Part shown: positions 36,728 to 52,793 of the stretch, piece after piece
Numbering within the stretch: the first letter of the stretch is position 1
Layout: the number at the start of each line of letters is the position of its first letter
NCBI GenBank assembly: GCA_026988115.1
Contig: JALSLV010000008.1
Coordinates: 2,924-66,923 of the forward strand
DNA: 64,000 nucleotides
Origin: Lysobacterales bacterium
GTDB taxonomy: Bacteria > Pseudomonadota > Gammaproteobacteria > Xanthomonadales > Marinicellaceae
Reading direction: 5' to 3'
The notes under the pieces: generated by a model
What the model was told of the DNA's origin: nothing
Databases searched by the model: none
What the model saw: the letters and a program-made list of their open reading frames with translations, nothing else
Translations under genes and position numbers: made by a program

Positions 36728-38872
36728 ATGAAAAAAATCATCCTTACTCTCTTAACTCTCGGAGTCTTAAGCGCGTGTATGCAAACAAACAAAAAAAACA
36801 CCACGAAACAGGTCACAAACAACTCACCCATTACTTACCCTAATACAAAAAAAGGAGACGTGGTTGATAACTACTTTGGTACAGCCGTTGCCGATCCCTA
36901 CCGATGGTTAGAGGATGATAGGGCAGAAGACACAGCAGCTTGGGTGAAAGCCGAAAATAAAGTGACTCATGATTACTTAAATCAAATACCCTACCGTGAA
37001 AAAATAAAAAACCGTTTAACTAAAATCTGGAACTACGAAAAAGTCACGGCTCCATTTAAAGAAGGCAAATACACCTATTTTTATAAAAACAATGGTTTAC
37101 AAAATCAATACGTTATGTATCGCAAAGACGCCAACGGCAATGAAGAAATTTTCTTAGATCCCAATACGTTTAGCGAAGATGGTACGGTTTCACTTGGACA
37201 GGTGAGTTTTTCAAAAGATGGCTCAATTGCCGCTTATGCGATTAGTGAAGGTGGCAGTGATTGGCGCAAAGTCAAAGTTATTGATGTCGAGTCAAAACAA
37301 CAAACCGAAGAAACATTGGTTGATATTAAATTTTCAGGGCTCTCATGGTATAAAAATGAAGGCTTTTATTACTCCAGTTATGACAAGCCAAAGGGCAGTG
37401 AATTATCGGCGAAAACCGACCAACACAAATTGTATTACCACAAATTAGGCACAAAACAATCAACTGACCAGGTGGTTTTTGGTGGCACAGCAGCACAAAA
37501 ACACCGTTATGTCGGTGGCGATGTCACTGAGGACAACCATTATTTAATTATTTCAGGTGCCGTTTCAACCAATGGCAATCGTCTATTTCTTAAAGATTTA
37601 ACCAAAGCAAATTCCCCATTAGTTACTATTTTAGATCACACCGATTCTAATACTTATGTGATTGATAACATCGGTTCAAAACTATATTTGGTGACGGATT
37701 TAAATGCACCAAATAAAAAAGTGGTGACCGTTGATGCATCAAACCCAACATCAACAAACTGGGTTGATTTCATTTCTGAAACAAATAATGTTTTATCAAC
37801 AAGCACTGGTTCTGGTTATTTTTTCGCCAATTATATGGTCGATGCGGTCACACAGGTCAAACAATACGATTACGATGGTAACTTAGTGCGAGAAGTGAAG
37901 TTGCCAGGTGTCGGTACAGCCAGTGGCTTTGGTGGTAAAAAAGAGGATGAAACTTTGTATTATACCTTCTCAAATTACGTCACTCCAGGCACAACCTATG
38001 CTTATGATGCACAAACTGGGGATTCAAAGGTTTATAATAAGCCTAAAATTGATTTTGATTCCGATAGCTATACCTCAAAACAAGTATTCTACACGTCTAA
38101 AGATGGCACCAAAGTGCCGATGATAATCTCCTATAAAAAAGGCATTAAACTAAATGGCAAAAACCCAACAATCCTCTACGGTTATGGTGGATTCAACATC
38201 AGTTTAAAACCACGCTTTAGCATTACTCGCGCGGTATGGATGGAACTTGGTGGCATTTATGCGGTGGCAAACTTGCGTGGTGGTGGCGAATACGGCACCC
38301 AATGGCATGATGCGGGCACACAGCAGAAAAAGCAAAATGTGTTTGATGATTTTATTGCGGCTGGTGAGTATTTAATTAACAATAAATACACCTCGAAACA
38401 AAAACTTGCAATCATGGGAGGCTCAAACGGTGGGTTACTGGTGGGTGCAGTCATGACCCAACGCCCTGATCTTATGCAAGTGGCACTGCCAGCCGTAGGT
38501 GTACTGGATATGCTGCGTTACCACACATTTACCTCTGGTGCAGGCTGGGCGTATGATTATGGCACCAGCGAACAATCAAAAGAAATGTTTGACTACTTGC
38601 TCGGCTATTCTCCTGTACACAATGTCAAACAAGGTGTGGATTATCCTGCCACTCTTATAACAACAGGCGACCATGATGATCGCGTTGTTCCAGCTCACTC
38701 TTTTAAATTCGCCGCCCAATTGCAAGCCAAAGGCAGTAACAAAAATCCATTATTGATACGCATAGAAACCGACGCAGGTCACGGAGCAGGCACACCCGTA
38801 TCCAAAACCATCGACCAATACGCCGATATCTTTGCTTTTACTTTGTGGAATATGGGTGTTAAGCAGTTGTAA
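36728..38872 (+). CDS. prolyl oligopeptidase (S9A) lipoprotein
   Basis: 714 aa with the lipobox LGVLSAC and N-terminal DPYRWLED. The catalytic Ser motif is GGSNGGLL. Late D and H lie in GDHDDRV and DAGHG. Confidence 0.9.
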
Positions 38873-39045
38873 ATGTGCTAAGAGCGACTAAGAGGGCGTC
38901 TTTAGTGCAGCAGTGAATTACAAAAGACTCCATTTCGAGCCGCTACTTGAGAATCTAAAAAGCCCACTTACCTCAAAAACAACAAATGTACATTTGCACA
39001 TATGCAGACAAAATGATAAAATTTAAATTTTTTAATTATTTGAAA

Positions 39046-39288
39046 ATGAGATTATCAATAGAAGTAACACCAGAACAACACCAGCTTTTAAAAGTGGCAG
39101 CTGCTTTACAAGGTGAGTCAATTAAAGATTTCGTTTTAAAACGGACTTTGCCTGATATAGAAGAGCATATGGCTTTGAAAAAGTTAGAAGATTTTCTACG
39201 CCCAAGAATAAAGTCGGCAAAAGCAGGGAGTTTCACGAAAGATTCAGTAAATGAAATTTTTAAAAGCGTTATAAATAAGAGTATTTAA
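39046..39288 (+). CDS. ribbon-helix-helix type II antitoxin (ParD/DUF1778-like)
   Basis: The ORF starts at 38986, but I prefer the ATG at 39046 (MRLSIEVTPEQHQLLKVAAALQGESIKDFVL), giving 80 aa. Its stop lies 1 nt before the toxin start. Confidence 0.65.
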   Translation: MRLSIEVTPEQHQLLKVAAALQGESIKDFVLKRTLPDIEEHMALKKLEDFLRPRIKSAKAGSFTKDSVNEIFKSVINKSI

Positions 39289-39289
39289 A

Positions 39290-39598
39290 TTGCAAAGTTA
39301 TAAAATTACGGAAGATGCAAAAGTTGATTTAATTGAAATTGCTCACTATACTTTAAATAAATGGGGTAAAGATACATTTATCAAATATAGAAATGGGCTG
39401 GAGAAAGCCTTTAATGCCATTGCTAAACAAACCTCCATTAAGAAAATATTTTCTGAAAAACTGTCCGACGTTTTTGTGAAAAAATATAAGCATCATTACA
39501 TTTTTTATATTAACCAAAAAAACACAGTCATTATTATCGCAGTTATTCATGAAAAACGTGATATCTTAAGTCATTTGACACGACGTTTAGAGTCATAA
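39290..39598 (+). CDS. ParE/RelE-superfamily type II toxin
   Basis: 102 aa with a TTG start abutting the antitoxin stop. It has a ParE-like layout (D..I..Y....G...A..Y...L...) and the C-terminal IIIAVIHEKRD. Confidence 0.65.
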   Translation: MQSYKITEDAKVDLIEIAHYTLNKWGKDTFIKYRNGLEKAFNAIAKQTSIKKIFSEKLSDVFVKKYKHHYIFYINQKNTVIIIAVIHEKRDILSHLTRRLES

Positions 39599-39684
39599 AT
39601 AGTTCAGTTAATACACCTTGCTAAGACGGGTATTTTTTCTCATTGTCATTTGACAATCTATTCAATTAATCATTAAATACATGC

Positions 39685-41193
39685 ATGAAACAAAAAAACG
39701 AACTTTACGCGGCGGTGGATTTGGGATCCAATTCTTTTCATATGGTGGTGGCTGAGTTTGTTAATCATCAGATGCATGTGATTGATCGGCACAAAGACAT
39801 GGTACGTTTGGCTAACGGACTTGATGATGAAGGGCGATTGTCTGGTGAGAAGATGGATGAAGCGATTTCTTCGCTTGAAAAAATAGGACAGCGCATAGCG
39901 CACATACCCAAATCTCATTTGCGTATTGTTGGTACCAATACATTACGCAAAGCAAAAAATGCTGAGGAGTTTTTGGCGCGGGCATCAAGTGCATTGGGCA
40001 AACCCATTGATATTATTTCTGGGCGTGAAGAAGCGCGAATTTTGTATTTGGGTGTGGCACATTCACTTGCCAGCAATCAGGGCAAACGTTTGGTGATTGA
40101 CATTGGCGGAGGTTCGACTGAGTTGATAATTGGTGAAGAATTTACGCCCCTCTTGCGAGAAAGCTTACACATGGGTTGCGTTAGTTACACAAAAAAGTTT
40201 TTTGCTGACGGCAATATTTCAAAAAGCAATTTCAAAAAAGCCGTTCGTTCGGCGCAACGTCAATTGCTTTCCATTGTTAGTAAATACCAACAGTTGGGCT
40301 GGAACACCGTTATTGGTGCATCAGGAAGTATGCGTTCGACGGCTAAAGTTATTGTGCACAATGAATACGCACGGTATGGCATTGAAAAAGAGGGTTTGGA
40401 TAAACTCATTAAAAAATGTTGTGATTTGGGTACTATTGACAAACTCAAAAATCTGGATGGGCTAAGTTCTCGCCGAAGACCTGTTTTTATCGGTGGATTA
40501 GCCATAATTAAAGCCTTGTTCGATTCACTGGAATTTCAAACCATTCAAGCCTCAAGTGGAGCCTTGCGCGAGGGCATTGTTTATGATTTAAGCGGTCGTT
40601 TGCACCACAATGATATTCGCAGGCGCAGTATTGATAAGCTCGTTAAGCAATTTGAAATTGATATATCGCACAGCAAACGGGTGAAAGCTACCATTGATGA
40701 TTTGATCAACTTAAGCAATATTAAACTCTCTGAATCTCAACACGAATTGCTTAATTGGGCAGCACAATTGCATGAATTGGGTTTAAATATATCTCATTCC
40801 CATTTTGAAAAACACGCAGCTTATATCATTTCTCACGCAGACATGCCTGGTTTTTCTACGCAAGAACAGCTAAAACTATCTGTTATTGTTGCCTCACTCC
40901 GACGTAAAATCAAAAAAGAATGGTTGCAAAAATTGTCGAGTAAACAGCAAGTAAAACTTTTACCATTAATCGTTATATTTCGCGCTGCGACCTTATTAAA
41001 TCGCCCGAGAACTGACGACAATATCCCATTAGAGTCCATCACCTTAGACGATAAAAGCATTGAGATTAAGTTTCAAAACGATTGGCTAAACAATCATCCA
41101 CTTACCTTTGAAGATCTAGAATCTGAGAAGAAGTATCTGAAAAACTTGGGCATTAAGTTAAAACTCTACTCAACTCCATCGCAAGCATCTTGA
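39685..41193 (+). CDS. ppx: exopolyphosphatase / guanosine pentaphosphate phosphohydrolase
   Basis: 502 aa with the ASKHA motifs AAVDLGSNSFHMVV and IDIGGGSTELI. The C-terminal part is HD-like. Confidence 0.9.
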   Translation: MKQKNELYAAVDLGSNSFHMVVAEFVNHQMHVIDRHKDMVRLANGLDDEGRLSGEKMDEAISSLEKIGQRIAHIPKSHLRIVGTNTLRKAKNAEEFLARASSALGKPIDIISGREEARILYLGVAHSLASNQGKRLVIDIGGGSTELIIGEEFTPLLRESLHMGCVSYTKKFFADGNISKSNFKKAVRSAQRQLLSIVSKYQQLGWNTVIGASGSMRSTAKVIVHNEYARYGIEKEGLDKLIKKCCDLGTIDKLKNLDGLSSRRRPVFIGGLAIIKALFDSLEFQTIQASSGALREGIVYDLSGRLHHNDIRRRSIDKLVKQFEIDISHSKRVKATIDDLINLSNIKLSESQHELLNWAAQLHELGLNISHSHFEKHAAYIISHADMPGFSTQEQLKLSVIVASLRRKIKKEWLQKLSSKQQVKLLPLIVIFRAATLLNRPRTDDNIPLESITLDDKSIEIKFQNDWLNNHPLTFEDLESEKKYLKNLGIKLKLYSTPSQAS

Positions 41194-41939
41194 TAACCCA
41201 AATCACAACTTTTTTCATAAAGTAGGGTTGCTTTTTCTTTATCCATTTTTACACCATCACCGTATTCATAATTTACAGCTAAATTATAACAAGCGGTTTC
41301 TTCGTCGTTATCACAGGCATGAGAATAATAGGTGTTGGCTTTTTTTTGATTCTTTTTCGTGCCCTCTCCAGTATCGTACATTATAGCCAGTCCAAGGCAA
41401 CCAATTTCATCCTCTAACTCACATGATGTTGTAAAATATTTGAATGCTGTTTTGCTGTTTTTTTTGACACCATTGCCCTTTTTATACAAGTAGGCTAAAT
41501 TTGCACAGGCTGTCCCTTCTTCATTATTGCAAGCCATGGTGTAATATTTATGTGCTTGTTTATAATTTTGTTTTACGCCTTTTCCGTCAGCGTAAACAAC
41601 CCCAAGGTTATAGCAAGAATAACTGTCATTCAATTCACAACCTTTGCGGTATAACTCAAAGGCTTTGACCTTGTTTACATTCACTCCTTGGCCCGAATCA
41701 TAATAATAGCCCAAAACCCGACAACTGTAGCCATCATTCAAACCACAAGCTTTAGTGTAAAATTTTGTTGCTTTTGCATAGTCAATCAAATTGCCACCCA
41801 AACCTTCATCAAAAACATCTCCAAGATCCGAACACACATCAACATCGCCTTTTTCACAAGCAAGATATGCCTCTTTTGGTATTTCACAAAGAACGGTAAA
41901 ACTTGCTAAAACAAGTAAAGTTAATAAGGTGTATTTCAT
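41166..41939 (-). CDS. Sel1-like repeat, cysteine-rich (Hcp-like) secreted protein
   Basis: 257 aa with a signal peptide. It has about six 36-aa repeats of the form A.KYY..AC......C.NLG..Y..G.GV. Its 3' end overlaps the ppx 3' end by 28 nt. Confidence 0.8.
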   Translation of the reverse strand: MKYTLLTLLVLASFTVLCEIPKEAYLACEKGDVDVCSDLGDVFDEGLGGNLIDYAKATKFYTKACGLNDGYSCRVLGYYYDSGQGVNVNKVKAFELYRKGCELNDSYSCYNLGVVYADGKGVKQNYKQAHKYYTMACNNEEGTACANLAYLYKKGNGVKKNSKTAFKYFTTSCELEDEIGCLGLAIMYDTGEGTKKNQKKANTYYSHACDNDEETACYNLAVNYEYGDGVKMDKEKATLLYEKSCDLGYQDACDGVE

Positions 41940-42102
41940 TTTTTTGATTCCCGATATTTAAATGTTGAGTGGGTATTATATAGATTTATTTTGAAGCGAT
42001 TGTTAACAAATGTTCAGTAGCTAATTCATTGCATTGTTTTGAAAGTGTTTTAATATCAGGTGGGGTAAAGTTGGGATTAACTTAAATAACGACTTTCATC
42101 AT

Positions 42103-42750
42103 TTACTCTGTTGGATCTTGGTACATAAAACGCTTGTAGCCAAACTTTTTATACAATTTATTAAACACCAAAGTACGCTGCATTTGTGTGTCTTTTAGTT
42201 TAGCAAACATGTCGTATGCCTGGTTAATTAATTGCACTTTATGCTGTTTATCAAACATCATCGTTGCGCCTGAAGTCATGGCAATCTCATCGGCACCAAC
42301 TATTCTGGTGTAGATTAATTGCCCAATAATGCCTTCACTTTTACAAAACCCCAAATCCACAATACGGATTAATTGCGAATCAGGCTCAAGCAAGTTTTGT
42401 AACCAAACATAACTGTTTTGAATATCAATTTTTTCAATAGAATAAACAGAAGGTTTTGTAGCAATCATTGAATCGATTAGTTTGCCTTCAACTTCAGTAA
42501 GCGAGTCCCTGTGTTTTTTATTAAAATTTTCAACACCAGTGCTGCCATTGTTACCTAAGCAATCATTGATAACAAAATCGTAAAAACGGTATTGCTCCCC
42601 TTCGTTTTTAAATGAAATTTTATTCATTCTTAGCATTTTCATCAAACGCGCCGCTTTTTTAAAATGGTTGCGCGCAATGCTGCCCAAAAGTTTTCCATTG
42701 AGCTCCATGCCAACGGCTCTTAAGTTCTGGTATTTTTGTATTTGTTTCAT
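42103..42750 (-). CDS. hypothetical protein (first gene of the accessory island)
   Basis: 215-aa ORF with no recognisable motif. It is divergent from the HTH-methyltransferase gene. Confidence 0.5.
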   Translation of the reverse strand: MKQIQKYQNLRAVGMELNGKLLGSIARNHFKKAARLMKMLRMNKISFKNEGEQYRFYDFVINDCLGNNGSTGVENFNKKHRDSLTEVEGKLIDSMIATKPSVYSIEKIDIQNSYVWLQNLLEPDSQLIRIVDLGFCKSEGIIGQLIYTRIVGADEIAMTSGATMMFDKQHKVQLINQAYDMFAKLKDTQMQRTLVFNKLYKKFGYKRFMYQDPTE

Positions 42751-42798
42751 TTTTCCTTTTTTAATTTAACTCTTTAAATGGTATTTTACCCACAATAA

Positions 42799-42826
42799 TT
42801 GATAACCATGTATAAGGTTGTATAAT
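42799..42826 (+). promoter_or_regulatory. sigma70-like promoter placing the transcription start at or next to the methyltransferase ATG (leaderless candidate)
   Basis: TTGATA (42799-42804), a 16-nt spacer, then TATAAT (42821-42826). The ATG at 42833 is 6 nt after the -10 element. The region also holds ATAACC...GGTTAT inverted half-sites. Confidence 0.4.
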
Positions 42827-42832
42827 AGGGTT

Positions 42833-44074
42833 ATGAAAACACAATATACGTTATCTGAAGCGGCTAAAATTCTTGGCAAAAATCCTGAAACACTCAGAAG
42901 ATGGGATAATGACAATAAACTTAATGCTATTCGTGAACCTATTAGTAATTATAGGGTTTATAACAAAAAACAGTTAGAAATATTTCCTGAATTTAATGAA
43001 TACATTAAAAACGTCACTGAATCTAATTACGTTAAAGCCGATAGAGATTACTCGGTCATTGAGTTGTTTGCTGGTGCGGGAGGATTAGCCCTAGGAATGG
43101 AGCAAGCAGGCATTAAGTGCGAGGTATTGAATGAAATTGATAAATGGGCATGTCAAACTTTGCGAGAAAATCGACCTGCATGGAATGTACTAGAGGGCGA
43201 TATAAAATCGTGTGATTTTACCGATTACACAAACAAAGTCGATATTGTTACCGGTGGCTTTCCATGCCAAGCCTTTAGTTATGCAGGCAAAAAATTGGGT
43301 TTAAAAGATGCCAGAGGCACATTGTTTTATGAATTTGCTCGTGTGGTAAATGAAGTGAAACCACCGATATGCATTGGTGAAAATGTTCGTGGTTTATTGA
43401 GTCATAAAAAAGGCAAAACATTAGAAGGCATGATTTCAATACTTGATGAAATTGGTTATAACGTCGTTGCTCCGGTTCAAGTGTTAAAGGCCGTTAATTA
43501 TAATGTTCCTCAAAAACGCGAACGTTTAATCCTAGTCGGCATTAGAAAAGACATTGCAACCCAATACAATTATCCAAAGCCCTACGATACTGTTTATAAT
43601 TTGAAAGATGCCTTAAAGAAAGGTGAATTATTTGATTGCGATGTTCCTCAATCAAATGGTTCTACCTACCCTGAGCATAAAGAAAAGGTATTAGAACTCG
43701 TTCCCCCAAAAGGTTATTGGCGAGACTTGCCTTTAGATATTCAGAAAGAGTATATGCAAAAAAGCTTTTATCTAGGCGGTGGTAAAACGGGCATGGCAAG
43801 GCGAATTGGCTGGGATGAGCCTTGTTTAACCTTAACCTGTAGCCCCGCACAAAAACAAACCGAACGCTGTCACCCAGATGAAACCCGTCCTTTTACTGTC
43901 CGAGAATACGCTCGCATCCAAACCTTTCCCGACACATGGAATTTTATAGGTTCAGTCTCGCAACAATACAAGCAAATTGGTAATGCAGTACCAGTAAATT
44001 TGGCGAAGGAGATTGGCTATTCGATCGTTAACTTTTTGAATGACTATTATTTGAGTTTATCAAAGCCCAAATAA
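42833..44074 (+). CDS. DNA (cytosine-5) methyltransferase with N-terminal MerR-type HTH
   Basis: The ORF starts at TTG 42818, but I prefer the ATG at 42833. HTH is YTLSEAAKILGKNPETLRRWD. C5-MTase motifs are I ELFAGAGGL, IV GGFPCQAFS, VI ENVRGL, VIII QKRERL and X GNAVP. Confidence 0.9.
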   Translation: MKTQYTLSEAAKILGKNPETLRRWDNDNKLNAIREPISNYRVYNKKQLEIFPEFNEYIKNVTESNYVKADRDYSVIELFAGAGGLALGMEQAGIKCEVLNEIDKWACQTLRENRPAWNVLEGDIKSCDFTDYTNKVDIVTGGFPCQAFSYAGKKLGLKDARGTLFYEFARVVNEVKPPICIGENVRGLLSHKKGKTLEGMISILDEIGYNVVAPVQVLKAVNYNVPQKRERLILVGIRKDIATQYNYPKPYDTVYNLKDALKKGELFDCDVPQSNGSTYPEHKEKVLELVPPKGYWRDLPLDIQKEYMQKSFYLGGGKTGMARRIGWDEPCLTLTCSPAQKQTERCHPDETRPFTVREYARIQTFPDTWNFIGSVSQQYKQIGNAVPVNLAKEIGYSIVNFLNDYYLSLSKPK

Positions 44075-44646
44075 TAACTGTAATTTTCAAAGTTAATTTC
44101 ATCTAAAAGACTGCGTTGGGATTCATTCGCACTGTTGCTTATTTCTGTCAGTGCTGAATTCTCTGGTTTGTTGGATTTTTCATTAGATTTAAGAAAATCA
44201 TCAATTGCCATTGGTAAGACTTTATACAAATCATACAAGGCACTCTCTTGACCTGTTAGCATTTGATAAAATAAATCTCCAGATATTTTAAACACACGTG
44301 AATGGCTGTATTCTTTACCATTTATAATACCAGCCCAATGTTGTGAAAAACTTTTGGTAGCTAAAATCTGAACCCAATAACATTTGGCTTGTTTATTAGT
44401 GTCTGCATAATGAGCCAATTTTTGAAACAAACTTTCTGCCGAGCTACTGTTCATAGTATTGTGTTTATTTTTAATATCAGCAAACAAACTATCATCTGCT
44501 GCTTTGATATCAAAACCACTTAGATTACCCATTTCATAGCCGTCAATTCCTCCGAGAATTTCTTCATGAAAAGTTCCTATTGAATTGTTGATGGATTTAT
44601 CTATTTGACGGCTTATTTCCGTTTTGATTAATGTTTCTTCATCCAA
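44047..44646 (-). CDS. putative type II restriction endonuclease (PD-(D/E)xK-like), start uncertain or possibly 5'-truncated
   Basis: 199-aa ORF convergent with the MTase, overlapping it by 28 nt. It has the candidate catalytic pattern GFD-x10-ADIK. The only start is TTG. The frame stays open 55 codons further upstream, to 44811, without ATG, GTG or TTG. Confidence 0.5.
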   Translation of the reverse strand: MDEETLIKTEISRQIDKSINNSIGTFHEEILGGIDGYEMGNLSGFDIKAADDSLFADIKNKHNTMNSSSAESLFQKLAHYADTNKQAKCYWVQILATKSFSQHWAGIINGKEYSHSRVFKISGDLFYQMLTGQESALYDLYKVLPMAIDDFLKSNEKSNKPENSALTEISNSANESQRSLLDEINFENYSYYLGFDKLK

Positions 44647-44975
44647 TTTATTAAACTTCGTATCAAAAGTTAGTTTTATGACATCAATCTTATTTTTGTA
44701 GAATTTCTTTTTTGAGATATCAGCTTTGGCTTTTAAATATGAATTGTGAAGGTTTTCTATGCAAGCAAGAAAGTAAGTGACTGTCCGAAATGTAGGATAG
44801 GTATATGTTTGTCATTATTACAATATAAACTTATTAACTGATTTTTCAAGTTTTAAATTAGCTGATAAACACTAAAAATATTTACATCTTACGGTAGGAA
44901 CATGTGATTTCTGTATGTTTTAGACAAGTTAGATGTTAACCTGAAAAGTTAATATGCAATTTAAATTTAAAAACC

Positions 44976-45992
44976 CTATGAACCTTTGATGATATTTTTC
45001 TTTACAAAATCAACTCCTACTCGAATTGGATGTGCAAAACTATGATTAGCAATTCGTTGTGCATAATTTTGTTTAAGTGTAAATAAATAAGTAATTTTAT
45101 TTTTATTGGAATTGTTATCAGAATCCCAATCTAAAAATTCAATTTGTTTATCAATAAAGTTTGTACAAGGTATGTAAAGTTGGATTGGTTTTACATATTC
45201 ACCATTTGTCCAAGATATACATGAATCTGCGTTAATGTATGAAATAAATCCTCCATCTCCTTTTTGTAGACCCTTTTCTAAATTTATTTTAAAACCTTTA
45301 ACAAAGAAATATCTGAAATCAACACTACTTTTGCCATTATGTAAGACACAATCACATAATGCAGTAATACATAAATAATATTTATCATCGCTTCCAACAA
45401 ATATGTCTCCAAAACCAAGTTTAGTTTTTGAGTTTAAATAAGATCCATTATAAAAAATATTCAATTTCGCAATTTCCATGTTACTTATATTGAATCTCTT
45501 TTTAGAAATTTTATTTAAAAAATCATAATCAAGAATTTTTAGCTTTGAATCTTCCAAAGTGATTCTGGCTTGCTCTAACAATATGGACATCATATAAGAA
45601 TTAAATTCTTGGTGTAAATCGTGATCAATTAATTGTTTCCGATGATACATAAGCGTATTTAAATTAGTGTCTAATAAATTTTCGTCAATAAATGATGAGT
45701 AATTTGTAAAATTATTTTGCATATCAAGGCCTAACAATTGTGTAAAATTATTTTCACTTTTGGTAATTTGAGAAATCAGTTTTTTAAGAATTTTTTTAGC
45801 ACTATTTTCTTTTTTAGAAATTATTGTAATAATTGTATTGTTAATGTTTAAAGTGAAATTCTCCCTATTTATATGTGTTGGTATTGGATTAATTTCTTTA
45901 GATTTATGATAGCTTGAAAATGCATACTTAACTTTAATCAATGCAATACCAAAATCAGTTTCATCAGTAATATTTTTTATTATATTAGGCAA
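44976..45992 (-). CDS. unknown 338-aa protein, last gene of the MTase/GHKL/receiver operon (candidate effector)
   Basis: It has a TTG start overlapping the upstream stop by 13 nt and no obvious SD. It is very N/K/I-rich. I recognise no catalytic motif. There is a Cys cluster, CITALCDCV. Confidence 0.55.
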   Translation of the reverse strand: MPNIIKNITDETDFGIALIKVKYAFSSYHKSKEINPIPTHINRENFTLNINNTIITIISKKENSAKKILKKLISQITKSENNFTQLLGLDMQNNFTNYSSFIDENLLDTNLNTLMYHRKQLIDHDLHQEFNSYMMSILLEQARITLEDSKLKILDYDFLNKISKKRFNISNMEIAKLNIFYNGSYLNSKTKLGFGDIFVGSDDKYYLCITALCDCVLHNGKSSVDFRYFFVKGFKINLEKGLQKGDGGFISYINADSCISWTNGEYVKPIQLYIPCTNFIDKQIEFLDWDSDNNSNKNKITYLFTLKQNYAQRIANHSFAHPIRVGVDFVKKNIIKGS

Positions 45993-46546
45993 CTGATTAT
46001 CGATATTTTGAACTCAATATACAAACTTCCGTTTAAGGACGGGTCTACAAATGAAATTTTTTCAAAAAGACTCTTATGATCCTCTTCATAAATATCTAAT
46101 TCATCTTTTACAGCTGTATAGAATAGCTCATTTTTACCAGAAAAGTACGTTGTGATATTGTTGATTATTTCTTCATTATTATTTTGAGATGTGTAAATCG
46201 AACAAAAATGTATATGTTTTTCTTTAATAATTTTTGAAAGCAGTTTTAATGAATAAATCTCTCCTCCATTATCATCAAGCTTCCAATCTAACAAAACCAG
46301 GTCTCTTCTTTTAAAAAGAAAGTCTATACATTTTTCATCATCAATATCAGAAATATTAAATTTATGTATAGCTAAAGAAACTCCTTCTTTTTTAAAATTT
46401 TTATAGAGTTTTTTTGAAAGGTCAATTTCCATACAATTTGACTTAGGCTCTTCTGGTGTATAAAATTCAAATGCTTTTTCATCAATGTATATTGCTGACT
46501 TAATTGATTCTTTAATAATCTCTGTTGCTTTTTGATTTAAGGTCAT
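45980..46546 (-). CDS. receiver (REC)-like domain protein
   Basis: 188 aa with CheY-like landmarks: acidic pair D22-E23 (AIYIDEK), DLVLLD87WKL, CSIYT119S and K138. Confidence 0.6.
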   Translation of the reverse strand: MTLNQKATEIIKESIKSAIYIDEKAFEFYTPEEPKSNCMEIDLSKKLYKNFKKEGVSLAIHKFNISDIDDEKCIDFLFKRRDLVLLDWKLDDNGGEIYSLKLLSKIIKEKHIHFCSIYTSQNNNEEIINNITTYFSGKNELFYTAVKDELDIYEEDHKSLFEKISFVDPSLNGSLYIEFKISIISCLI

Positions 46547-46566
46547 TTAGAATTTTATACTCCATA

Positions 46567-49464
46567 TTATTTTAGTGGTTTAATAACGAAACAGGCTCCA
46601 TTCAGTATATTATAATCTTTATCATTTGTTGCAAAAATATCGAACCCGCTCTCATTAAGACTCTGCTTTGCAAGATATAATCCAATACCTCTTCCATTAG
46701 GTCGATTTGAATAAAATATTTCAAATATTTTATTCAATTTATGTTCTTCTATTTTAAACCCTGAGTTACATATAACAATTTCATCACTTTTGTCATTATA
46801 ATCTAACAGAATATGGCGATCCTTTTTATTTCTCATCCAATAAATAGCATTGTTTATTATATTTATATAAACAGTATGTATAACAGGTTCTTTAATTATC
46901 AATATATGTTTATTGTATGCATGTGTTCCTTCAAGTCTTATATCATAGGACTTTATACGATTTTCAAAAAATTTATTCAAATAACTATATATTGCTAACC
47001 CACTTACTTTTTTAGGTATTACACCAGATATTCTATATAGAGGGGATAATAAGTCATACTTATCTTCTAATTGATTAAAATTTTGCTTTAGAAATTGAAA
47101 TTGAATTTCATTTTTTACATTATTCTCTAAACTTAATTTAGCTATTGAACTATTGATTTTTGCATATAACTGGTTAAATTCATGATCAATTATTTCAACT
47201 GCAATACCTAATTGAGCCGTCTCTCTAGTTTGTTCCCAATTGTATTTTATAGTTTCGTATTCTGCTCTATATGCTCCTTGGATTAGATCCTCATCAATGT
47301 CAAAACTTAATTTATTGAGGTGTTCTATCAGTGGTGAAATTTCCTTATTAATTTGTTCTCTAAGGAATTCAAACTTGAGTGCCAATTTTTCAGAATGAAG
47401 AAGAACATCTTCTTTAGAATAAATCGAACCGATAACACTGTCTTTATCAAAATTCAAATCATCTATAATTCTTCTTGTTCGAAATGAAAAATCTTTAGAA
47501 ATCTTGGCTGATTGATTTTTTAATTGTTCTCTGTTATCAGTTATTAGTTTTTCAAGAGCTCCATTGTATTTTTGATAACTTTTAACAAACTCCATTTTCA
47601 ATTCTTTGATTTCGAGTTTGCCTTTAACTTGAATCATTAATTGTTTACTTTTATTTTTTGTCGTTTCAATGAAACTCATAAGCTTAGTTTCATATTTATC
47701 TAACCGATCTAACTGTGCATCTGTTGGCTTGTATCTCTTTGGGATTTTAGGTATTAAATTTTGAAACTCTATATCTAATGTGTGTAATCGATCTAGTATA
47801 CTTTCAATTTCTGAATAAAGAACACTTTGAAAAGTTGTTTTATCTTCAAGCTTATTAAGTAGTTTTTGGTATTCATTCTTATATTTTTCTAGTTTGATTG
47901 GATACTCTTTTAAGGACCGAGTAAATGCTTTTTTCTCTTCAATCGCTCTCTTATTATCAAGTTTGATAACTTCATGTTGTTGTTTTAGGTTTGCTTTTTT
48001 GTCTAAGAAAATTGATTTGTTAGCTTCAGTTCCAAAATACTCTTGGGCTAGTTCAATAAAAAAAGATTCTAAATCATTTTTAAATTTTCTGTACGCGGAA
48101 TTATTTATTAAACCTTCACGACTTGATTTATCACTTAATTTTTCATTTATTTTTCTGGATAGAGAAATATATCCGAACATTCTTCTGTGTGAAAAGTATG
48201 AACTTGCTCTTAAAGCTCTTCTTTTTTCAAAGCCTAGAAAATCAAAGTCAGTTCTCCCATAAGGCAACACTCTGAAATTATCCCTATAAATATACAGCCC
48301 CCCATTTGCACTAACTTTATCACTAATCCTTTTCCAAGCACTTGATTCAAGTTTAGATTCTTTTTCTCGACCTTGTGAAACACCTACTTTTATCGGAAAA
48401 GATCCATAGTAACTTCGGATGTCTTTTTTTCTAGGGTTTGTATATGTATAATTAATTTCTTCATCATATATTCTTAAAGTACCATTAAAGGAGCCTTTTC
48501 CATCAAATATCCCTTCAATTACAACATCTGCCAGATCAAAGTCATCTGCAGAAAAAAATTGACCATAGGAAGTTAGAAAATCAACTTCTGAGTTAATATC
48601 TTTATATATTGGAATAGCTGTTTTAACAATAATATTATTTTTTATAAACTCATTTGTAAATCCTGAAAGACTAGATGCAATAAATTGCCTATCACTTAAG
48701 CCATCATCATCTTTTTTCGTAATATCTATTATTTGCTCAATAGGCTCAAAAATTATAAACTTCGTTCCATGATTGTTCTCAATGTCTATTAAGTCATCAA
48801 GTAAATTATCCTCCAAAAAACAAGGTAGTTTTGAATTACTAATGGAGGCCTCAATTTCAGACTTTAAACTTTTCTGGTTTTCTTCCCATATTGGTTTACC
48901 ATCGATGTCGTTTTCTTTTTTAAAATTATTTAAGAAGGTTTTTTTTAGAGTTTCAAATTTTTTAGGAAAATCAGATGCACTTTTAATTGATTCTACTGGA
49001 ATATCAACATCATCTAAAAATAAATTATAGTTTTCTAATAACCTCCAATCAAAAAACAAGGCTTCTAATTCGTGCCCCTGCTTTTTTGTGAGCATTAACA
49101 TAGGGTTTCCTAGAAACGCGACTGAAAGTCTTCCAATTCCTTTTTCACCTGACTTTATTCTAGGTTTTTTCCAAAGTGTTTCTTCACTTTCTTTTTCTTC
49201 AAGCTTAGGTCTACTTTTAGAATCTGTTCCAAGTACTAACCATTTTTCAATAATGTCTTTTCTTGACATTCCTTTACCATCATCTGTCATTACAAATAAT
49301 GGAGTATCAACACCTTCATAAGAATCTAAATAAATTTCTGCCGTCAGGTGATCAGCATAAGCATCATAACCATTTTTCCATAATTCCGTGATAGCAGTTG
49401 GCAAATCAGCAATTTGACCTTTGCCAAGTAAATCTACTGCTCTAGCTTTAGTCCTGAATTGCAT
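46567..49464 (-). CDS. 965-aa double-GHKL protein: N-terminal Bergerat ATPase, coiled-coil-like middle, C-terminal histidine-kinase-like DHp plus CA module
   Basis: N-terminal motifs: ELWKNGYDAY (E27, N31, D34), TDDGKGM and GEKGIGRLS. Residues about 485-730 are K/E/L/N-rich. C-terminal motifs: H-box-like IIDH761EFNQL, N-box INIINNAIYW, F-box IFEIFYS and G2 box GRGIGLYLAKQ. Confidence 0.75.
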   Translation of the reverse strand: MQFRTKARAVDLLGKGQIADLPTAITELWKNGYDAYADHLTAEIYLDSYEGVDTPLFVMTDDGKGMSRKDIIEKWLVLGTDSKSRPKLEEKESEETLWKKPRIKSGEKGIGRLSVAFLGNPMLMLTKKQGHELEALFFDWRLLENYNLFLDDVDIPVESIKSASDFPKKFETLKKTFLNNFKKENDIDGKPIWEENQKSLKSEIEASISNSKLPCFLEDNLLDDLIDIENNHGTKFIIFEPIEQIIDITKKDDDGLSDRQFIASSLSGFTNEFIKNNIIVKTAIPIYKDINSEVDFLTSYGQFFSADDFDLADVVIEGIFDGKGSFNGTLRIYDEEINYTYTNPRKKDIRSYYGSFPIKVGVSQGREKESKLESSAWKRISDKVSANGGLYIYRDNFRVLPYGRTDFDFLGFEKRRALRASSYFSHRRMFGYISLSRKINEKLSDKSSREGLINNSAYRKFKNDLESFFIELAQEYFGTEANKSIFLDKKANLKQQHEVIKLDNKRAIEEKKAFTRSLKEYPIKLEKYKNEYQKLLNKLEDKTTFQSVLYSEIESILDRLHTLDIEFQNLIPKIPKRYKPTDAQLDRLDKYETKLMSFIETTKNKSKQLMIQVKGKLEIKELKMEFVKSYQKYNGALEKLITDNREQLKNQSAKISKDFSFRTRRIIDDLNFDKDSVIGSIYSKEDVLLHSEKLALKFEFLREQINKEISPLIEHLNKLSFDIDEDLIQGAYRAEYETIKYNWEQTRETAQLGIAVEIIDHEFNQLYAKINSSIAKLSLENNVKNEIQFQFLKQNFNQLEDKYDLLSPLYRISGVIPKKVSGLAIYSYLNKFFENRIKSYDIRLEGTHAYNKHILIIKEPVIHTVYINIINNAIYWMRNKKDRHILLDYNDKSDEIVICNSGFKIEEHKLNKIFEIFYSNRPNGRGIGLYLAKQSLNESGFDIFATNDKDYNILNGACFVIKPLK

Positions 49465-50539
49465 TGTAGTTTTCTATAATTGCTTGCCCAACTCTTTTTG
49501 CATATTCAGGAGGTACTGCATTACCTATTAATCTAGCAATATCTCCCATGCTTGTTCCTGAGAATCTATAATCCTTTGGGAATGTTTGTAATGTGGCACC
49601 CTCTCTTATTGAAAGCGCTCTGTTTTCTTGTGGGTGAACGAAGCGGCCATTAGATACACTAAAAAATTTCGTTGTAATTGTTGGAGCTGCTTTATCCCAC
49701 CACAGCCTACCAAATGTGTCTTTAAAGGAATTATCTTTACCAATAAAACAGTTTAATTGTAGTTCTGGATCATCTTTAAAACCTGATCTGTCACCACCAT
49801 CCTTTTTAACTTTTTTTAGTCGCCTTAAAGTTAGGTTTGTAATATTTGGAACAGAATGCATGAAATCTGTTTTATCAGAGTAGCCAGCTTTGATTCTTTT
49901 AAATCCATTTACAATACCAATCGTGTCACGAACAGTATATTTCTTAATTGCTTTTATTGGTTCTAATTCTTCTTTAGTTACTCTGTTGGCAATAAGCGTA
50001 AATCTTTTGCGATTTTGTGGCACTCCATAATCTGCTGTATTATGAACATCAAAATGTACTTTGTATTTATTTTTTATTAACCAAGATATAAAAGAAGCCA
50101 AACCACTTTCCCTTTTTTTGCGCAGTACACCTGGTACATTTTCTACGACAACATAGCCGGGGTTAAAGTACCTAACAAATCTTTCAAATTCTTTAAGTAA
50201 ATTTTTAGATTTTTTTGCTTTGGTTTTATCTGTATTTATAATGCTCCAAAATTGACAAGGGCTACAGCCAATTAATAACAATTCATCGTCATTCCTTTGA
50301 ATATCTAATGTTGACTCTAAGTCTTTTGCTTTTAAGTTAAATACATCTGCTTCAATAAACTTAGCTCCTGTTATATTGGCTTCATAAGTTTGTTTGCATT
50401 TTTTTTCGTTATCTATACCTGCTAAAACTTTTATACCTGCTTGTTGCATACCACAACTCATTCCGCCTCCACCACAGAAAAAATCCACTGCTTTAATTTT
50501 TGGTTTGTCGTTTGATTTTTTATTTATATTGTTAATCAT
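49448..50539 (-). CDS. DNA (cytosine-5) methyltransferase (Dcm family), first gene of the operon
   Basis: 363 aa with motifs I DFFCGGGGM, IV GCSPCQFWS, VI ENVPGV, VIII QNRKRF and X GNAVPP. Its 3' end overlaps the next gene's start by 17 nt. Confidence 0.9.
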   Translation of the reverse strand: MINNINKKSNDKPKIKAVDFFCGGGGMSCGMQQAGIKVLAGIDNEKKCKQTYEANITGAKFIEADVFNLKAKDLESTLDIQRNDDELLLIGCSPCQFWSIINTDKTKAKKSKNLLKEFERFVRYFNPGYVVVENVPGVLRKKRESGLASFISWLIKNKYKVHFDVHNTADYGVPQNRKRFTLIANRVTKEELEPIKAIKKYTVRDTIGIVNGFKRIKAGYSDKTDFMHSVPNITNLTLRRLKKVKKDGGDRSGFKDDPELQLNCFIGKDNSFKDTFGRLWWDKAAPTITTKFFSVSNGRFVHPQENRALSIREGATLQTFPKDYRFSGTSMGDIARLIGNAVPPEYAKRVGQAIIENYNAIQD

Positions 50540-50883
50540 AAATTGTCAGATGTGGTATTTGATAAATTTAAATATTAAGTTGTGCATAAATCCTTTTAAA
50601 ATATTAACACATAAATACAAATTTATTAAACAATATCTTTGATACTCATACCTTATTAATCATAAAGGGCTTTTTTACCCTTACCGATTTTAACTTTTTG
50701 ATGTGTTTTTCTAAAGCTTGAATTTGGTAGTGTTTATTGTTTTTACACCTTGTTGTTTGTTAATTCAAAGGATTTATATTTGCGCATGAATTTGGATTTT
50801 GTTTTATTGTTTCGTTATTCTGTCATTCCGAGAACTTTCTGACTCTGATGGTGGGCGAAGCCACACCTTACGGGTAATTCCTG

Positions 50884-52062
50884 TTACTGGTTTAGCATTT
50901 GCAATAATTCAAACAGACTGATGACATCAGTTTCCGCATCCAGTGGATATCTGTCATTACCGCCATAGACGACAAAACTTTCATCCGGTTTAATATCATC
51001 TAGTGCGTGATAAAAGCCTTTTGTGACTTTTGGCGCTAGTCCACTTTTGATTTCTATTGCCCAAATTTTGTTGTTTGGGAATTCTAAGATTAAATCTATT
51101 TCAGCTCCTGCTGCGGTTCGGTAAAAGCTTGCTTTTGTTGCTGGTTTTGTAAGGCTTAGAATATTTTCTATAACATAGCCTTCCCAACTTGATCCGTAAA
51201 CTGGGTGACCTGATAATTGGTTGTAATCTGCTATTCCGAGTAAGGCATGAGTAATACCACTGTCGCGGACATATATACGTGGTGATTTAACAAGTCTTTT
51301 TTTGGTGTTTACATAGAGTGGTTGAAACTTTCGCACCAGTAATAAATCAACTAATAAATCGATATAACTACTAATCGTGGGTGCTGATGTTGATAAACTA
51401 CTGGCTAAATTTGAGGCATTGAGTAATTGTCCTTGGTTATGTGCGAGCATTGTCCATAGGCGTTGTAATGTTTCTGCTGGGATACGTGGGCCAAACTGCG
51501 GCACATCTCGTTCTAGATAGGTTCTTATAAAGTTTGTTCGGTAGGCGAAACTGTCTTCATCATTTTTGGCAAGATAACTATCTGGAAATCCACCCCGTAT
51601 CCAAAGATTATGCTCAATTATATCTTGTTGTTTTTTATTGTTATGAATCTCTAATAAATTTAATGGGTTCATGTCTATGTATTCAATACGCCCGGCTAGT
51701 GTTTCTCCTGATTGTTTTAACAAATCTATTGATGCTGATCCAAGTATCAAAAATCGGTTTGTTTTTAAACCGTTTCTTCTGCCTGTATCAATAACGCCTC
51801 TTAGTACCTGAAAGATTTCTGGCATACGGTGTATTTCATCTAAAATAATCAGTTTTTCTTCATTTCTATTAAAGAATAAAACAGGGTCTGTTAGTTTTTC
51901 ACGGTCTTGTATTGCTTCTAAATCCAAATAAATAGCAGGGATGGTTTGTGCGACTTGGTGAGCCAGCGTTGTTTTACCAACTTGGCGTGGACCAATCAAG
52001 GCAACAGCTGCTTGTCTATTGAGTGCTTTATGGACTTTTTTGATGATATTTCGCTTAAACAT
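50884..52062 (-). CDS. AAA+ ATPase with DUF4143-type C-terminal domain
   Basis: 392 aa with Walker A GPRQVGKTT and Walker B LIILDEIH. The overall layout matches the widespread AAA_14/DUF4143 family (from memory). Confidence 0.75.
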   Translation of the reverse strand: MFKRNIIKKVHKALNRQAAVALIGPRQVGKTTLAHQVAQTIPAIYLDLEAIQDREKLTDPVLFFNRNEEKLIILDEIHRMPEIFQVLRGVIDTGRRNGLKTNRFLILGSASIDLLKQSGETLAGRIEYIDMNPLNLLEIHNNKKQQDIIEHNLWIRGGFPDSYLAKNDEDSFAYRTNFIRTYLERDVPQFGPRIPAETLQRLWTMLAHNQGQLLNASNLASSLSTSAPTISSYIDLLVDLLLVRKFQPLYVNTKKRLVKSPRIYVRDSGITHALLGIADYNQLSGHPVYGSSWEGYVIENILSLTKPATKASFYRTAAGAEIDLILEFPNNKIWAIEIKSGLAPKVTKGFYHALDDIKPDESFVVYGGNDRYPLDAETDVISLFELLQMLNQ

Positions 52063-52101
52063 CCTTGCATATTAAAATATTGGTTTTCAATATGCAAGGA
52101 T
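52061..52101. promoter_or_regulatory. perfect 13-bp inverted repeat overlapping the AAA+ gene SD and start codon
   Basis: ATCCTTGCATATT-N15-AATATGCAAGGAT. In the minus-strand mRNA the 3' arm would contain AAGGAUG, which is the SD-like sequence plus the start codon. Confidence 0.45.
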
Positions 52102-52317
52102 AAATAATATGTTTTGTTATTATTATCTTTTTTATTGTTGATGATAGGAAGGCAAATTTTATGGAAATTATGTTTTAAATGTCTCTGTGATTAACGGTAT
52201 AAAAGGGTCACAAGCTGGTGACCCACTACGGTAATCTCATTATTTATCTTTGTGTTGTTTGCGCCTTCTTTGCGAGCTTTGCGTTACGCTTTTATTATTT
52301 TATTTAATATCACACAT

Positions 52318-52346
52318 AAAAAAAGCCAATGATAAATTGGCTTTTT
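52318..52346 (-). terminator. rho-independent (bidirectional-looking) terminator after atpC
   Basis: AAAAAAAGCCAAT-gataa-ATTGGCTTTTT lies 25 nt downstream of the atpC stop. An A-run and a T-run flank a 7-bp stem. Confidence 0.7.
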
Positions 52347-52370
52347 AATGTTTTGAATTGTGATAAGTGC

Positions 52371-52793
52371 TTATCTTTTCAAATTCTTTTTCAAACGTGC
52401 CAGTGCGTGTAGCTGGGCTACGGCTTTGGATAGTTCGGCTTGGACTTGAGCTATGTCTTGGCGTTTGTCGGAGTCTTTGAGCAGTCTTTCGGCTTCTTCT
52501 TTGGCTTGAATGGCTGCGGCTTCGTCAATGTCTTCGGCGCGCGTTGCGGTATCGGCAAGGACTGATACAAGATAGGGTTGAACTTCTAGGATGCCACCCG
52601 AAACATAGTAGTTTTGGTGAGAACCATCTTTTAGCTCAACGCGAACTTCACCTGGCTTTAATAAAGTGATTAGCGGTGCGTGTCTTGGGGCGATACCCAA
52701 TTCGCCGGCTATTCCTGTGGCAAATACCATTGCCACTTCACCTGAGAATATCTCAGTTTCGGCACTTACGATGTCACATTGTATTGAACTCAT
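52371..52793 (-). CDS. atpC: F0F1 ATP synthase subunit epsilon
   Basis: 140 aa, last gene of the atp operon, with the typical N-terminus (DIVSAE..IFSGEV). Confidence 0.9.
   Translation of the reverse strand: MSSIQCDIVSAETEIFSGEVAMVFATGIAGELGIAPRHAPLITLLKPGEVRVELKDGSHQNYYVSGGILEVQPYLVSVLADTATRAEDIDEAAAIQAKEEAERLLKDSDKRQDIAQVQAELSKAVAQLHALARLKKNLKR

Follow-up and report, generated by a model that had tools for sequence, protein, structure and literature searches.

Just downstream of atpC, in the genome of a gammaproteobacterium near the family Marinicellaceae, lies a locus that we read as a chromosomal defence locus with a conserved frame and a variable cassette. (The AtpD protein of this organism is 93% identical to that of a Marinicellaceae metagenome-assembled genome and 88% identical to those of Marinicella species.) The genome, which we will call G000 (GCA_026988115.1), comprises 121 contigs with a total of 3.51 Mb. 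By "the window" we mean the whole stretch of 64,000 nt that we analysed, at C8:2924-66923; all positions below are window positions unless another contig or locus is named. We propose that the frame is formed by the atpC-side spacer on one side and, on the other, by the block R-M1-DUF7986, where R and M1 are the restriction endonuclease (REase) and the C5 cytosine methyltransferase (MTase) of an Eco47II-type restriction-modification (R-M) pair. The cassette would be a trio of genes directly upstream of R, in the same orientation, encoding a second MTase (M2), a paraMORC/histidine-kinase-like protein of the GHKL type, and a protein resembling a response regulator (RR). In G000, the slot would hold a HEF_HK/Response_reg_2-type trio that came from Bacteroidota, a AAA/DUF4143 ATPase gene would have been added, and decay would be under way. 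We give this reading a probability of about two in three.

The frame can be recognized in relatives. In the closest relative (GCA_054022815.1, locus L097), the DNA is collinear with 37188-44815 and carries parDE, ppx, a Sel1-repeat gene, DUF7986, M1, and R, with nucleotide identities of 95.0% (37188-42080) and 96.5% (42071-44815); the contig stops at the ATG of R. A metagenome scaffold of 7989 nt (L103, which extends L098) has the 3' end and terminator of atpC, a repeat, genes for a 406-amino-acid C5 MTase, a 704-amino-acid protein that runs from HATPase_c_3 to HATPase_c, and a 434-amino-acid protein, and then R, M1, and DUF7986. The atpC end and terminator of L103 are 80% identical to 52397-52319 and are followed by the same dispersed-repeat family as in the window. 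Its R-M1-DUF7986 block, in which M1 is again convergent with R, has 80% DNA identity to ours. Its trio, compared with the trio of the window, shows no nucleotide similarity: the kinases are 23–31% identical, the MTases are 25% identical, and the third proteins do not match. Because L103 keeps the architecture with a different trio, we consider the trio slot to be an exchangeable cassette of a composite locus. The alignments to L097, L098, and L103 break off at 44815-44820, which is the start codon of R, and in L103 the start of R overlaps the preceding gene by 4 nt. Another locus, L151, has a third arrangement, with a MTase, a 793-amino-acid GHKL protein, and two small open reading frames (ORFs) upstream of the same R/M1 pair.

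Most of this stretch is therefore an old locus that is common to relatives, and the AT-rich operon is its youngest layer. A first-pass annotation, made from the sequence alone, had described a defence island assembled by successive insertions between core genes. The defence-type cluster with layers of differing age stands: a type II R-M pair, a MTase-linked trio resembling a two-component system, and a candidate defence ATPase (PDC-S01) lie inside 10 kb, as expected of a defence island. The independent insertions are disfavoured, because DUF7986-M1-R is shared as a block (at 96.5% and 80% nucleotide identity) and because L103 has the whole architecture.

The young layer stands out by its base composition. 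Across 3101 4-kb windows of G000, the GC content averages 37.6% (standard deviation 2.3), and none is lower than 44647-48646, at 26.8% (z = -4.8). A sliding-window plot shows a trough of 25–30% at 44.5-48.5 kb, as compared to 35–44% in the rest of the window, and the intergenic region between R and the RR-like gene (44647-44975) has a GC content of 0.258. GC content at third codon positions (GC3) is 0.17–0.22 for the four AT-rich ORFs of the trio, or percentile 0.2–2.2 among 1769 long ORFs; by the same comparison, it is ordinary for M1, the DUF7986 gene (orf215), and the AAA/DUF4143 gene. Thus the strong A/T bias at 44.6-50.6 kb, which had been judged by eye, is confirmed by computed GC and GC3, and the GC plot that had been suggested as a check places the lowest 4-kb window of the genome at 44.6-48.6 kb. 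The bias spans only about 44.8-50.9 kb, which is narrower than the 10-kb AT-rich island that had been noted: the trio region is AT-rich, but orf215, M1, and the AAA gene are host-like.

Judging by sequence comparisons, the trio is a recent inter-phylum import from Bacteroidota, and this origin explains its GC content, the lowest in the genome. All of the best relatives of the kinase-like protein come from Bacteroidota (76% identity for Winogradskyella, 75% for Tenacibaculum, 72% for Saprospiraceae, and 71% for Aquimarina), and a maximum-likelihood tree places it inside nested Bacteroidota clades, with SH-aLRT (approximate likelihood-ratio test) supports of 95, 100, and 99. At the protein level, G000 is the only one of 44 species representatives of the family with the kinase-like protein, and there is no DNA match to 44976-50539 in 14 congeners. 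The assembly that carries L097, at about 96% nucleotide identity, has zero proteins in the 90% clusters of the trio genes. For M2, no relative with at least 90% identity was found in a collection of 15 billion proteins, which includes the proteins of that assembly. In Bacteroidota hosts, the module has a GC content of 27–33%, equal to the copy in G000 and below its own flanks there. The four-gene operon had been named as the latest arrival, and this agrees with its absence from 14 congeners (DNA) and from 43 other genomes of the family (protein). We also considered the prolyl oligopeptidase gene at 36.7-38.9 kb, which has 67% identity to a Flavobacterium gene located close to the trio in that organism. 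We put this down to chance, because the enzyme is a peptidase of the housekeeping type that is also in L097.

The trio behaves as a unit in the 80 fetched loci with a homologue of the kinase-like protein. The order MTase, kinase-like gene, RR-like gene holds in 76 of the 80; in two others, the MTase is downstream of the RR-like gene. The kinase-like protein is full-length across the 80 loci, and M2 is up to 79% identical to their MTases. In G000, M2 overlaps the start of the kinase-like gene by 17 nt, and the kinase-like protein has PF13589 (residues 23–145), PF19191 or HEF_HK (751–813, E = 2.4e-20), and PF02518 (861–961). Such HEF_HK/Response_reg_2 modules, linked to C5 MTases and paraMORC ATPases, were described computationally by Bellieny-Rabelo, Pretorius & Moleleki (2021, Genome Biol Evol, PMC8011034). 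In some Bacteroidota loci, a nuclease gene (HNH_2 or NOV_C) follows the RR-like gene, which agrees with that paper. PADLOC gives no above-noise match for either the kinase-like or the RR-like protein.

The "four-gene operon" of the first-pass annotation has three genes: a C5 MTase, a paraMORC/HEF_HK ATPase, and a Response_reg_2 protein of about 516 amino acids, whose gene is split in the assembled sequence by a 1-nt frameshift into ORFs of 188 and 338 amino acids. (The eight ORFs counted between the flanks are accordingly seven genes, since these two ORFs are halves of one; the ORF coordinates themselves were confirmed.) The 338-amino-acid ORF is not a separate gene, because the homologues are single proteins of about 515 amino acids and because tblastn shows a clean switch of frame. 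Specifically, the 458 RR-like homologues typically have about 515 amino acids and start with Response_reg_2, and alignments of three of them switch frames at 46007-46010 with zero residues lost. The site reads TTCAAAATATCG; it contains a run of four A at 46006-46009, and one extra A restores the frame.

The receiver domain of the RR-like protein matches receiver folds in the PDB, and the phospho-acceptor aspartate and acidic pocket are present: D22 and D86 do not vary among 59 homologues. The C-terminal domain of about 330 residues (44976-45992) has an invariant C-x4-C-D-C motif along with conserved His, Arg, Asn, and Asp, across more than 450 proteins. Two AlphaFold2 models of the RR-like protein are confident (pLDDT, the predicted local distance difference test, of 86–89), including the C-terminal domain (pLDDT 86). 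A structure search with this domain gave no significant match in the PDB; the top-ranking structure, CcdB (1vub), had a probability of 0.63 and E = 0.64 and is no more than a weak lead.

The R-M pair has its own lesion. R and M1 are convergent, and their 3' ends overlap by 28 nt. About 70 metagenome loci show the same convergent pairing, at 70–79% amino acid identity; M1 is the MTase that is cognate to this Eco47II-type REase. (The M1 ORF opens at a TTG at 42818; the length of 413 amino acids, from the ATG, is also seen in relatives.) R had been described as truncated at its 5' end, and this was the reason given for the recency of the operon next to it. R is instead complete in length: its first ~55 codons are present, spread over two frames, and it was disrupted by a 4-nt duplication, not cut by an insertion, so that part of the argument for recency falls. 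The called ORF alone scores 206 bits against PF09553, or 259 bits together with the frame upstream of its TTG start, which codes for profile positions 8–51; coverage of the profile is 8–201 with the upstream frame and 1–201 across the frameshift. The gene opens at the ATG at 44815, in the other frame, and the lesion is a tandem duplication (TTGC TTGC on the coding strand) at 44761-44768, near codon 17. Intact orthologues of 254 amino acids are present in L097 (96.5% nucleotide identity) and in L098/L103 (80%), and the alignment puts 3 + 1 extra bases in the window. So, in the assembled sequence, the reading frame of the REase is broken, and full-length coverage by PF09553 is still present.

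In the assembly, then, R and the RR-like gene are each frameshifted, and M1, M2, and the kinase-like gene are intact. Since both candidate executors are broken while the MTases and the kinase-like gene survive, the present activity of the locus is probably methylation only, and the locus is probably decaying towards orphan methyltransferases. Broken executors with surviving MTases fit the decay of R-M systems into solitary MTases.

Could these frameshifts be errors in the assembly or consensus, or reversible phase variation, so that a two-MTase defence system is fully active? The lesion in the RR-like gene lies in a homopolymer (A4 where A5 is expected), which is a classic site for error or slippage. 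The lesion in R is a 4-nt tandem duplication, which is not a homopolymer. Furthermore, in the roughly 30.8 kb that we aligned to close relatives, all other gaps are compensated or keep the frame, and the alignment that spans R has no further uncompensated small indel, so the assembly is not indel-prone; it is also 100% complete with 0.09% contamination. We consider a fully active system to be quite unlikely.

It is also conceivable that the lineage has had the AT-rich trio for a long time, that low GC is intrinsic to such modules, and that relatives have lost it. The module is indeed AT-richer than its flanks in Bacteroidota too, and the L103-type trio is AT-rich as well (GC of 0.29–0.33). However, this would leave the trio protein in just 1 of 44 genomes of the family and no proteins from its 90% clusters in the L097-carrying assembly, at ~96% nucleotide identity; its 76% identity to homologues from Flavobacteriia, nested inside them, and its unameliorated GC3 also argue against long residence. 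We think this is very improbable. A more serious alternative is that the site is a neutral landing pad, where an orphan gene, an M/R pair, an operon, and an ATPase gene were inserted independently, and where the trio lies next to R by chance. This would account for the three compositional and phyletic strata; furthermore, R-M1 pairs are mostly without a trio, Eco47II is found in 0 of the 80 trio loci, and a spacer with a promoter-like site precedes R. But G000, L103, and L151 each have a different module with a MTase and a GHKL protein immediately before the same R family, all with the same orientation. In addition, similarity breaks at the start codon of R, DUF7986-M1-R is inherited as a single block, and, in L103, the gene before R shares 4 nt with its start. 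We therefore consider independent insertions to be unlikely.

Several observations weigh against the conserved frame with an exchangeable cassette, or against a working connection between the two. Replacement of one trio by another and independent insertion at the same slot fit the data equally well, although the operon is the newest layer under both. In G000, 160 nt separate the RR-like gene from R, with a promoter-like site at 44849-44822, although such sites are not enriched in the region. A downstream nuclease is missing from many of the trio loci, and no trio of any kind precedes about 30 other R/M1 pairs of the Eco47II type for which 3 kb or more of upstream sequence is available, which implies that R-M1 is functional alone. 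The 434-amino-acid protein of L103 is only weakly receiver-like, at its N-terminus (hhalign against Response_reg_2 gives E = 0.034 and a probability of 1.5%), and it has no homologues in the genomes of the genus or in JGI metagenomes. No vector for the trio was found: we dropped plasmids and phages as the vehicle, as their homologues are distant (under 33% identity). And in the literature, we did not find an experimental test of the function of HEF_HK/Response_reg_2 trios.

We also propose, by analogy with R-M systems and from the domain logic of PMC8011034, how the trio would work. The MTases would mark self DNA. The MORC-like GHKL N-terminal domain of the soluble kinase would sense a DNA or nucleotide cue; the HEF_HK and HATPase_c domains would autophosphorylate and then pass the phosphate to the invariant aspartate of the receiver. 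The C-terminal domain of the receiver protein would then execute or license restriction, possibly with a downstream nuclease. Because different trios recur in the same orientation before the same nuclease, and because of the 4-nt overlap in L103, we argue for a functional link between the trio and R. Taken further, the trio and the Eco47II pair (perhaps with DUF7986) might form one regulated restriction system, in which the trio is a swappable sensor that gates the nuclease and the slot is bounded by the start codon of R. We offer this as a tentative idea, and we doubt it more than we believe it. If it is true, then signal-gated type II restriction would have a modular, swappable design that is exchanged even across phyla, and the HEF_HK/Response_reg_2 family would gain a concrete output.

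The features of the locus are listed in Table 1. The two C5 MTases, the Eco47II-type REase, and the AAA_14/DUF4143 ATPase, which had been proposed from the sequence alone, are supported by Pfam and PADLOC.

Table 1. Features of the atpC-proximal locus, in window coordinates
Feature	Position	Strand	GC	Evidence and remarks
Sel1-repeat protein, left flank	41166..41939	-	0.366	Pfam Sel1, 5 repeats
DUF7986 protein (orf215, the "215-aa orphan")	42103..42750	-	0.356	Precomputed Pfam PF25948/DUF7986; GC3 0.375; GC and GC3 both host-like
M1, HTH (helix-turn-helix, MerR-like)-fused C5 cytosine MTase, intact, 413 aa from ATG	42833..44074	+	0.380	PF00145 E = 3.7e-86 and MerR_1; GC host-like
R, Eco47II-family REase gene, frameshifted	44047..44815	-	0.323	PF09553
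Spacer from RR-like gene to R, 160 nt, AT-rich	44816..44975	-		Left edge of the swapped segment lies at its end next to R
RR-like gene, Response_reg_2 receiver and ~330-aa C-terminal domain, frameshifted	44976..46546	-		PF19192 E = 1.3e-30
338-aa ORF (C-terminal part of RR-like protein)			0.250	
Receiver ORF (188 aa)			0.263	
paraMORC/histidine-kinase-like protein, intact, 965 aa	46567..49464	-	0.292	HATPase_c_3, HEF_HK, HATPase_c
M2, C5 cytosine MTase, first gene of the trio, intact	49448..50539	-	0.331	PF00145 E = 3.4e-55
AAA_14/DUF4143 ATPase	50884..52062	-	0.375	Pfam; PADLOC PDC-S01 E = 6.8e-85, full length; GC host-like
Dispersed intergenic repeat, right edge of variable region	52240..52344	.		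At least 19 other copies in the genome
atpC, core right flank	52371..52793	-		85–99% identical across the genus

DUF7986 and M1 diverge from a 67-nt spacer (42751-42835), and this pairing is kept in all of the relatives that we found. Just 7 relatives of DUF7986 were found, and an M1-type DNA_methylase is on each of their contigs where genes are annotated. DUF7986 may have a regulatory or accessory role alongside the Eco47II-type pair. In two of the metagenome relatives (L099/L100), M1 is split into two ORFs and a fragment of a DDE_3 transposase adjoins DUF7986; this is an independent decay of the same frame, with a remnant of a mobility gene that is not in the window. In the congener G011, M1 and a fragment of R are located elsewhere: the 264-nt piece of R (at G011:C78, L014 5336-5599) is 97% identical to 44469-44732, while the M1 and ppx of that genome are 83% and 68% identical. 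This suggests, on the strength of these identities, that R sequence was recently exchanged within the genus.

The nominal site for Eco47II-type enzymes is GGNCC (Pfam family description). In G000, GGWCC (GGACC/GGTCC) is scarce, with an observed/expected ratio of 0.66, or about 3.5 standard deviations below the mean for 5-mers, and other R-M systems could be the cause; GGSCC (GGCCC/GGGCC) is over-represented, with a ratio of 1.28. The scarcity of GGWCC may be due to restriction avoidance, which would be relevant to the site that the Eco47II-type enzyme, or a different R-M system, truly recognizes.

Turning to the flanks, the first-pass annotation held that core genes lie on both sides and suggested a search for the empty site between Sel1 and atpC. 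Core status is right for atpC, but the Sel1 gene is lineage-specific: it adjoins ppx only in G003 and L097, the two closest relatives. We searched with ppx and atpC against 40 relatives and compared 16 flanking stretches. In none of the relatives examined is ppx or Sel1 joined to atpC; the two sides are on different contigs or far apart. So no empty site was found among them, and the gene order between Sel1 and atpC is not kept in them. Similarity to six congeners ends just past atpC, at 52298-52371 (for five of them, at 52298-52320), and similarity to most of the six also ends just past ppx (~41140). The DNA beyond these breakpoints maps to other contigs of G000 and carries housekeeping genes, which vary from one species to the next (eno, miaA, fpg, and an aminoacyl-tRNA synthetase, as named by eye from N-terminal sequences). 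Because similarity stops past both genes and the outer DNA is on other contigs, the locus is, as far as these alignments go, at a genus-wide synteny breakpoint, and this is why an empty site was not found. On the ppx side, M1 is directly after ppx in G009, a 42-nt remnant of orf215 is beside ppx in G004, and Sel1 is present in G003, where similarity ends at 42033. A parD/parE toxin-antitoxin pair (100 and 102 amino acids) at 38986-39598 is directly upstream of ppx, as it is in L097.

As had been noted, there is no integrase, transposase, or tRNA gene at the borders: searches with Pfam, NCBIfam, PHROGs, and PADLOC found no integrase, recombinase, or transposase in 41-53 kb, and there is no tRNA gene across the whole window. 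A search for att-like (attachment-site) direct repeats at the borders, which had also been suggested, gave nothing convincing, only short repeats at chance level. The locus has none of the marks of an integrative element (a mobility gene, a tRNA or att site, or a clean empty site). We propose that the trio entered by recombination; a mobility gene would not be required, because the slot is bounded by conserved DNA at a repeat-rich synteny breakpoint.

The AAA/DUF4143 gene is an extra addition in G000. It is missing from the matching spacer of L103, and its 90% cluster has one member. G000 has 7 paralogues of it, at 27–53% identity. Copies of dispersed repeats had been reported near the right border. 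The repeat at 52240-52344 is real and overlaps a terminator-like hairpin of atpC (52320-52346), but 50821-50880 has no BLAST match elsewhere in the genome. That segment and 52205-52238 have in common just a short hairpin and an ACGG(G)TAAT motif. We dropped 50821-50880 as a border marker, given the lack of BLAST support and a motif search (by regular expression) that found just three hairpin-bearing copies in the genome. The ATPase gene lies between two short GC hairpins (50850-50880 and 52205-52238) that share an orientation and both have ACGG(G)TAAT after them; this combination is also at C115:~14820-14866. The copy at 52205 has a counterpart in the spacer downstream of atpC in L103, and the other copy (50850-50880) may have arisen, or been carried in, along with the ATPase gene. 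Separately, an element of about 78–100 nt is found at the ends of many contigs of G000 (C20, C56, C66, C79, C42, C76) and also beside ppx in G004:C28 (L015 963-1133), where it adjoins the orf215 remnant. This element probably represents one end of an insertion sequence or a miniature inverted-repeat transposable element that breaks the assembly, and it may drive rearrangements at the locus.

The locus amounts to a natural experiment: relatives keep the frame and carry non-homologous trios, one of which was, by our comparisons, imported from another phylum. This raises the suggestion that widespread two-component-like modules may cooperate with type II REases and move as cassettes. The intact L103-type locus and the trios of Flavobacteriia are ready candidates for cloning. 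There are also lessons for annotation: low GC flags just the newest layer of a defence locus, and "orphan" ORFs beside such a layer can be halves of a frameshifted gene.

The closest known counterpart of the trio is the module of PMC8011034. In both, the kinase-like protein is soluble and has HATPase_c_3, HEF_HK, and HATPase_c, the neighbouring RR-like protein has PF19192, a C5 MTase gene is upstream, and a type II nuclease is nearby. In G000, however, the RR-like gene is frameshifted instead of encoding a full-length protein of ~515 amino acids, the host is a gammaproteobacterium with a Bacteroidota allele, and the nuclease is of the Eco47II family, with a second MTase of its own; we did not see that family listed in the paper. 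As in other Eco47II-type R-M systems (PF09553 with a C5 MTase), R and M1 are a convergent pair with overlapping 3' ends and a HTH-fused MTase. Unlike them, R in G000 appears to be inactivated by a 4-nt duplication, and the pair sits between a DUF7986 gene and a MTase/GHKL-kinase/receiver trio.

Defence hotspots such as the pheT hotspot of P. aeruginosa, which was described along with MADS (bioRxiv 10.1101/2023.03.30.534895), also have a fixed chromosomal position, content that varies between relatives, and no dedicated mobility gene. Here, in contrast, there is one conserved boundary (atpC) and a genus-wide synteny breakpoint on the other side, and it is a sub-cassette of one composite system that varies, not whole systems. 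We also considered MADS and VcSduA/paraMORC3 as the identity of the trio, but those papers describe different systems.

In Detocs and similar defence systems, a cytoplasmic histidine kinase signals to a receiver protein with an effector domain. The trio shares this kinase-to-receiver-effector concept, but it has a MORC-like GHKL sensor, an obligatory methyltransferase, and an effector domain with no significant match in the PDB, and PADLOC gives no Detocs match. The AAA_14/DUF4143 ATPase matches the PDC-S01 profile over its full length (E = 6.8e-85); PDC-S01 is only a candidate defence system, and given the 7 paralogues in G000, this may be a general or selfish family of ATPases. The components of the locus are all of known kinds: a type II R-M system, a computationally described module that resembles a two-component system with a paraMORC protein, and a PADLOC candidate ATPase. 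The new elements are the way in which Eco47II and DUF7986 are combined with a trio, the repeated occurrence of this composite downstream of atpC with trios that are not homologous to each other, the descent of the G000 trio from another phylum, and the pseudogenisation of two genes.

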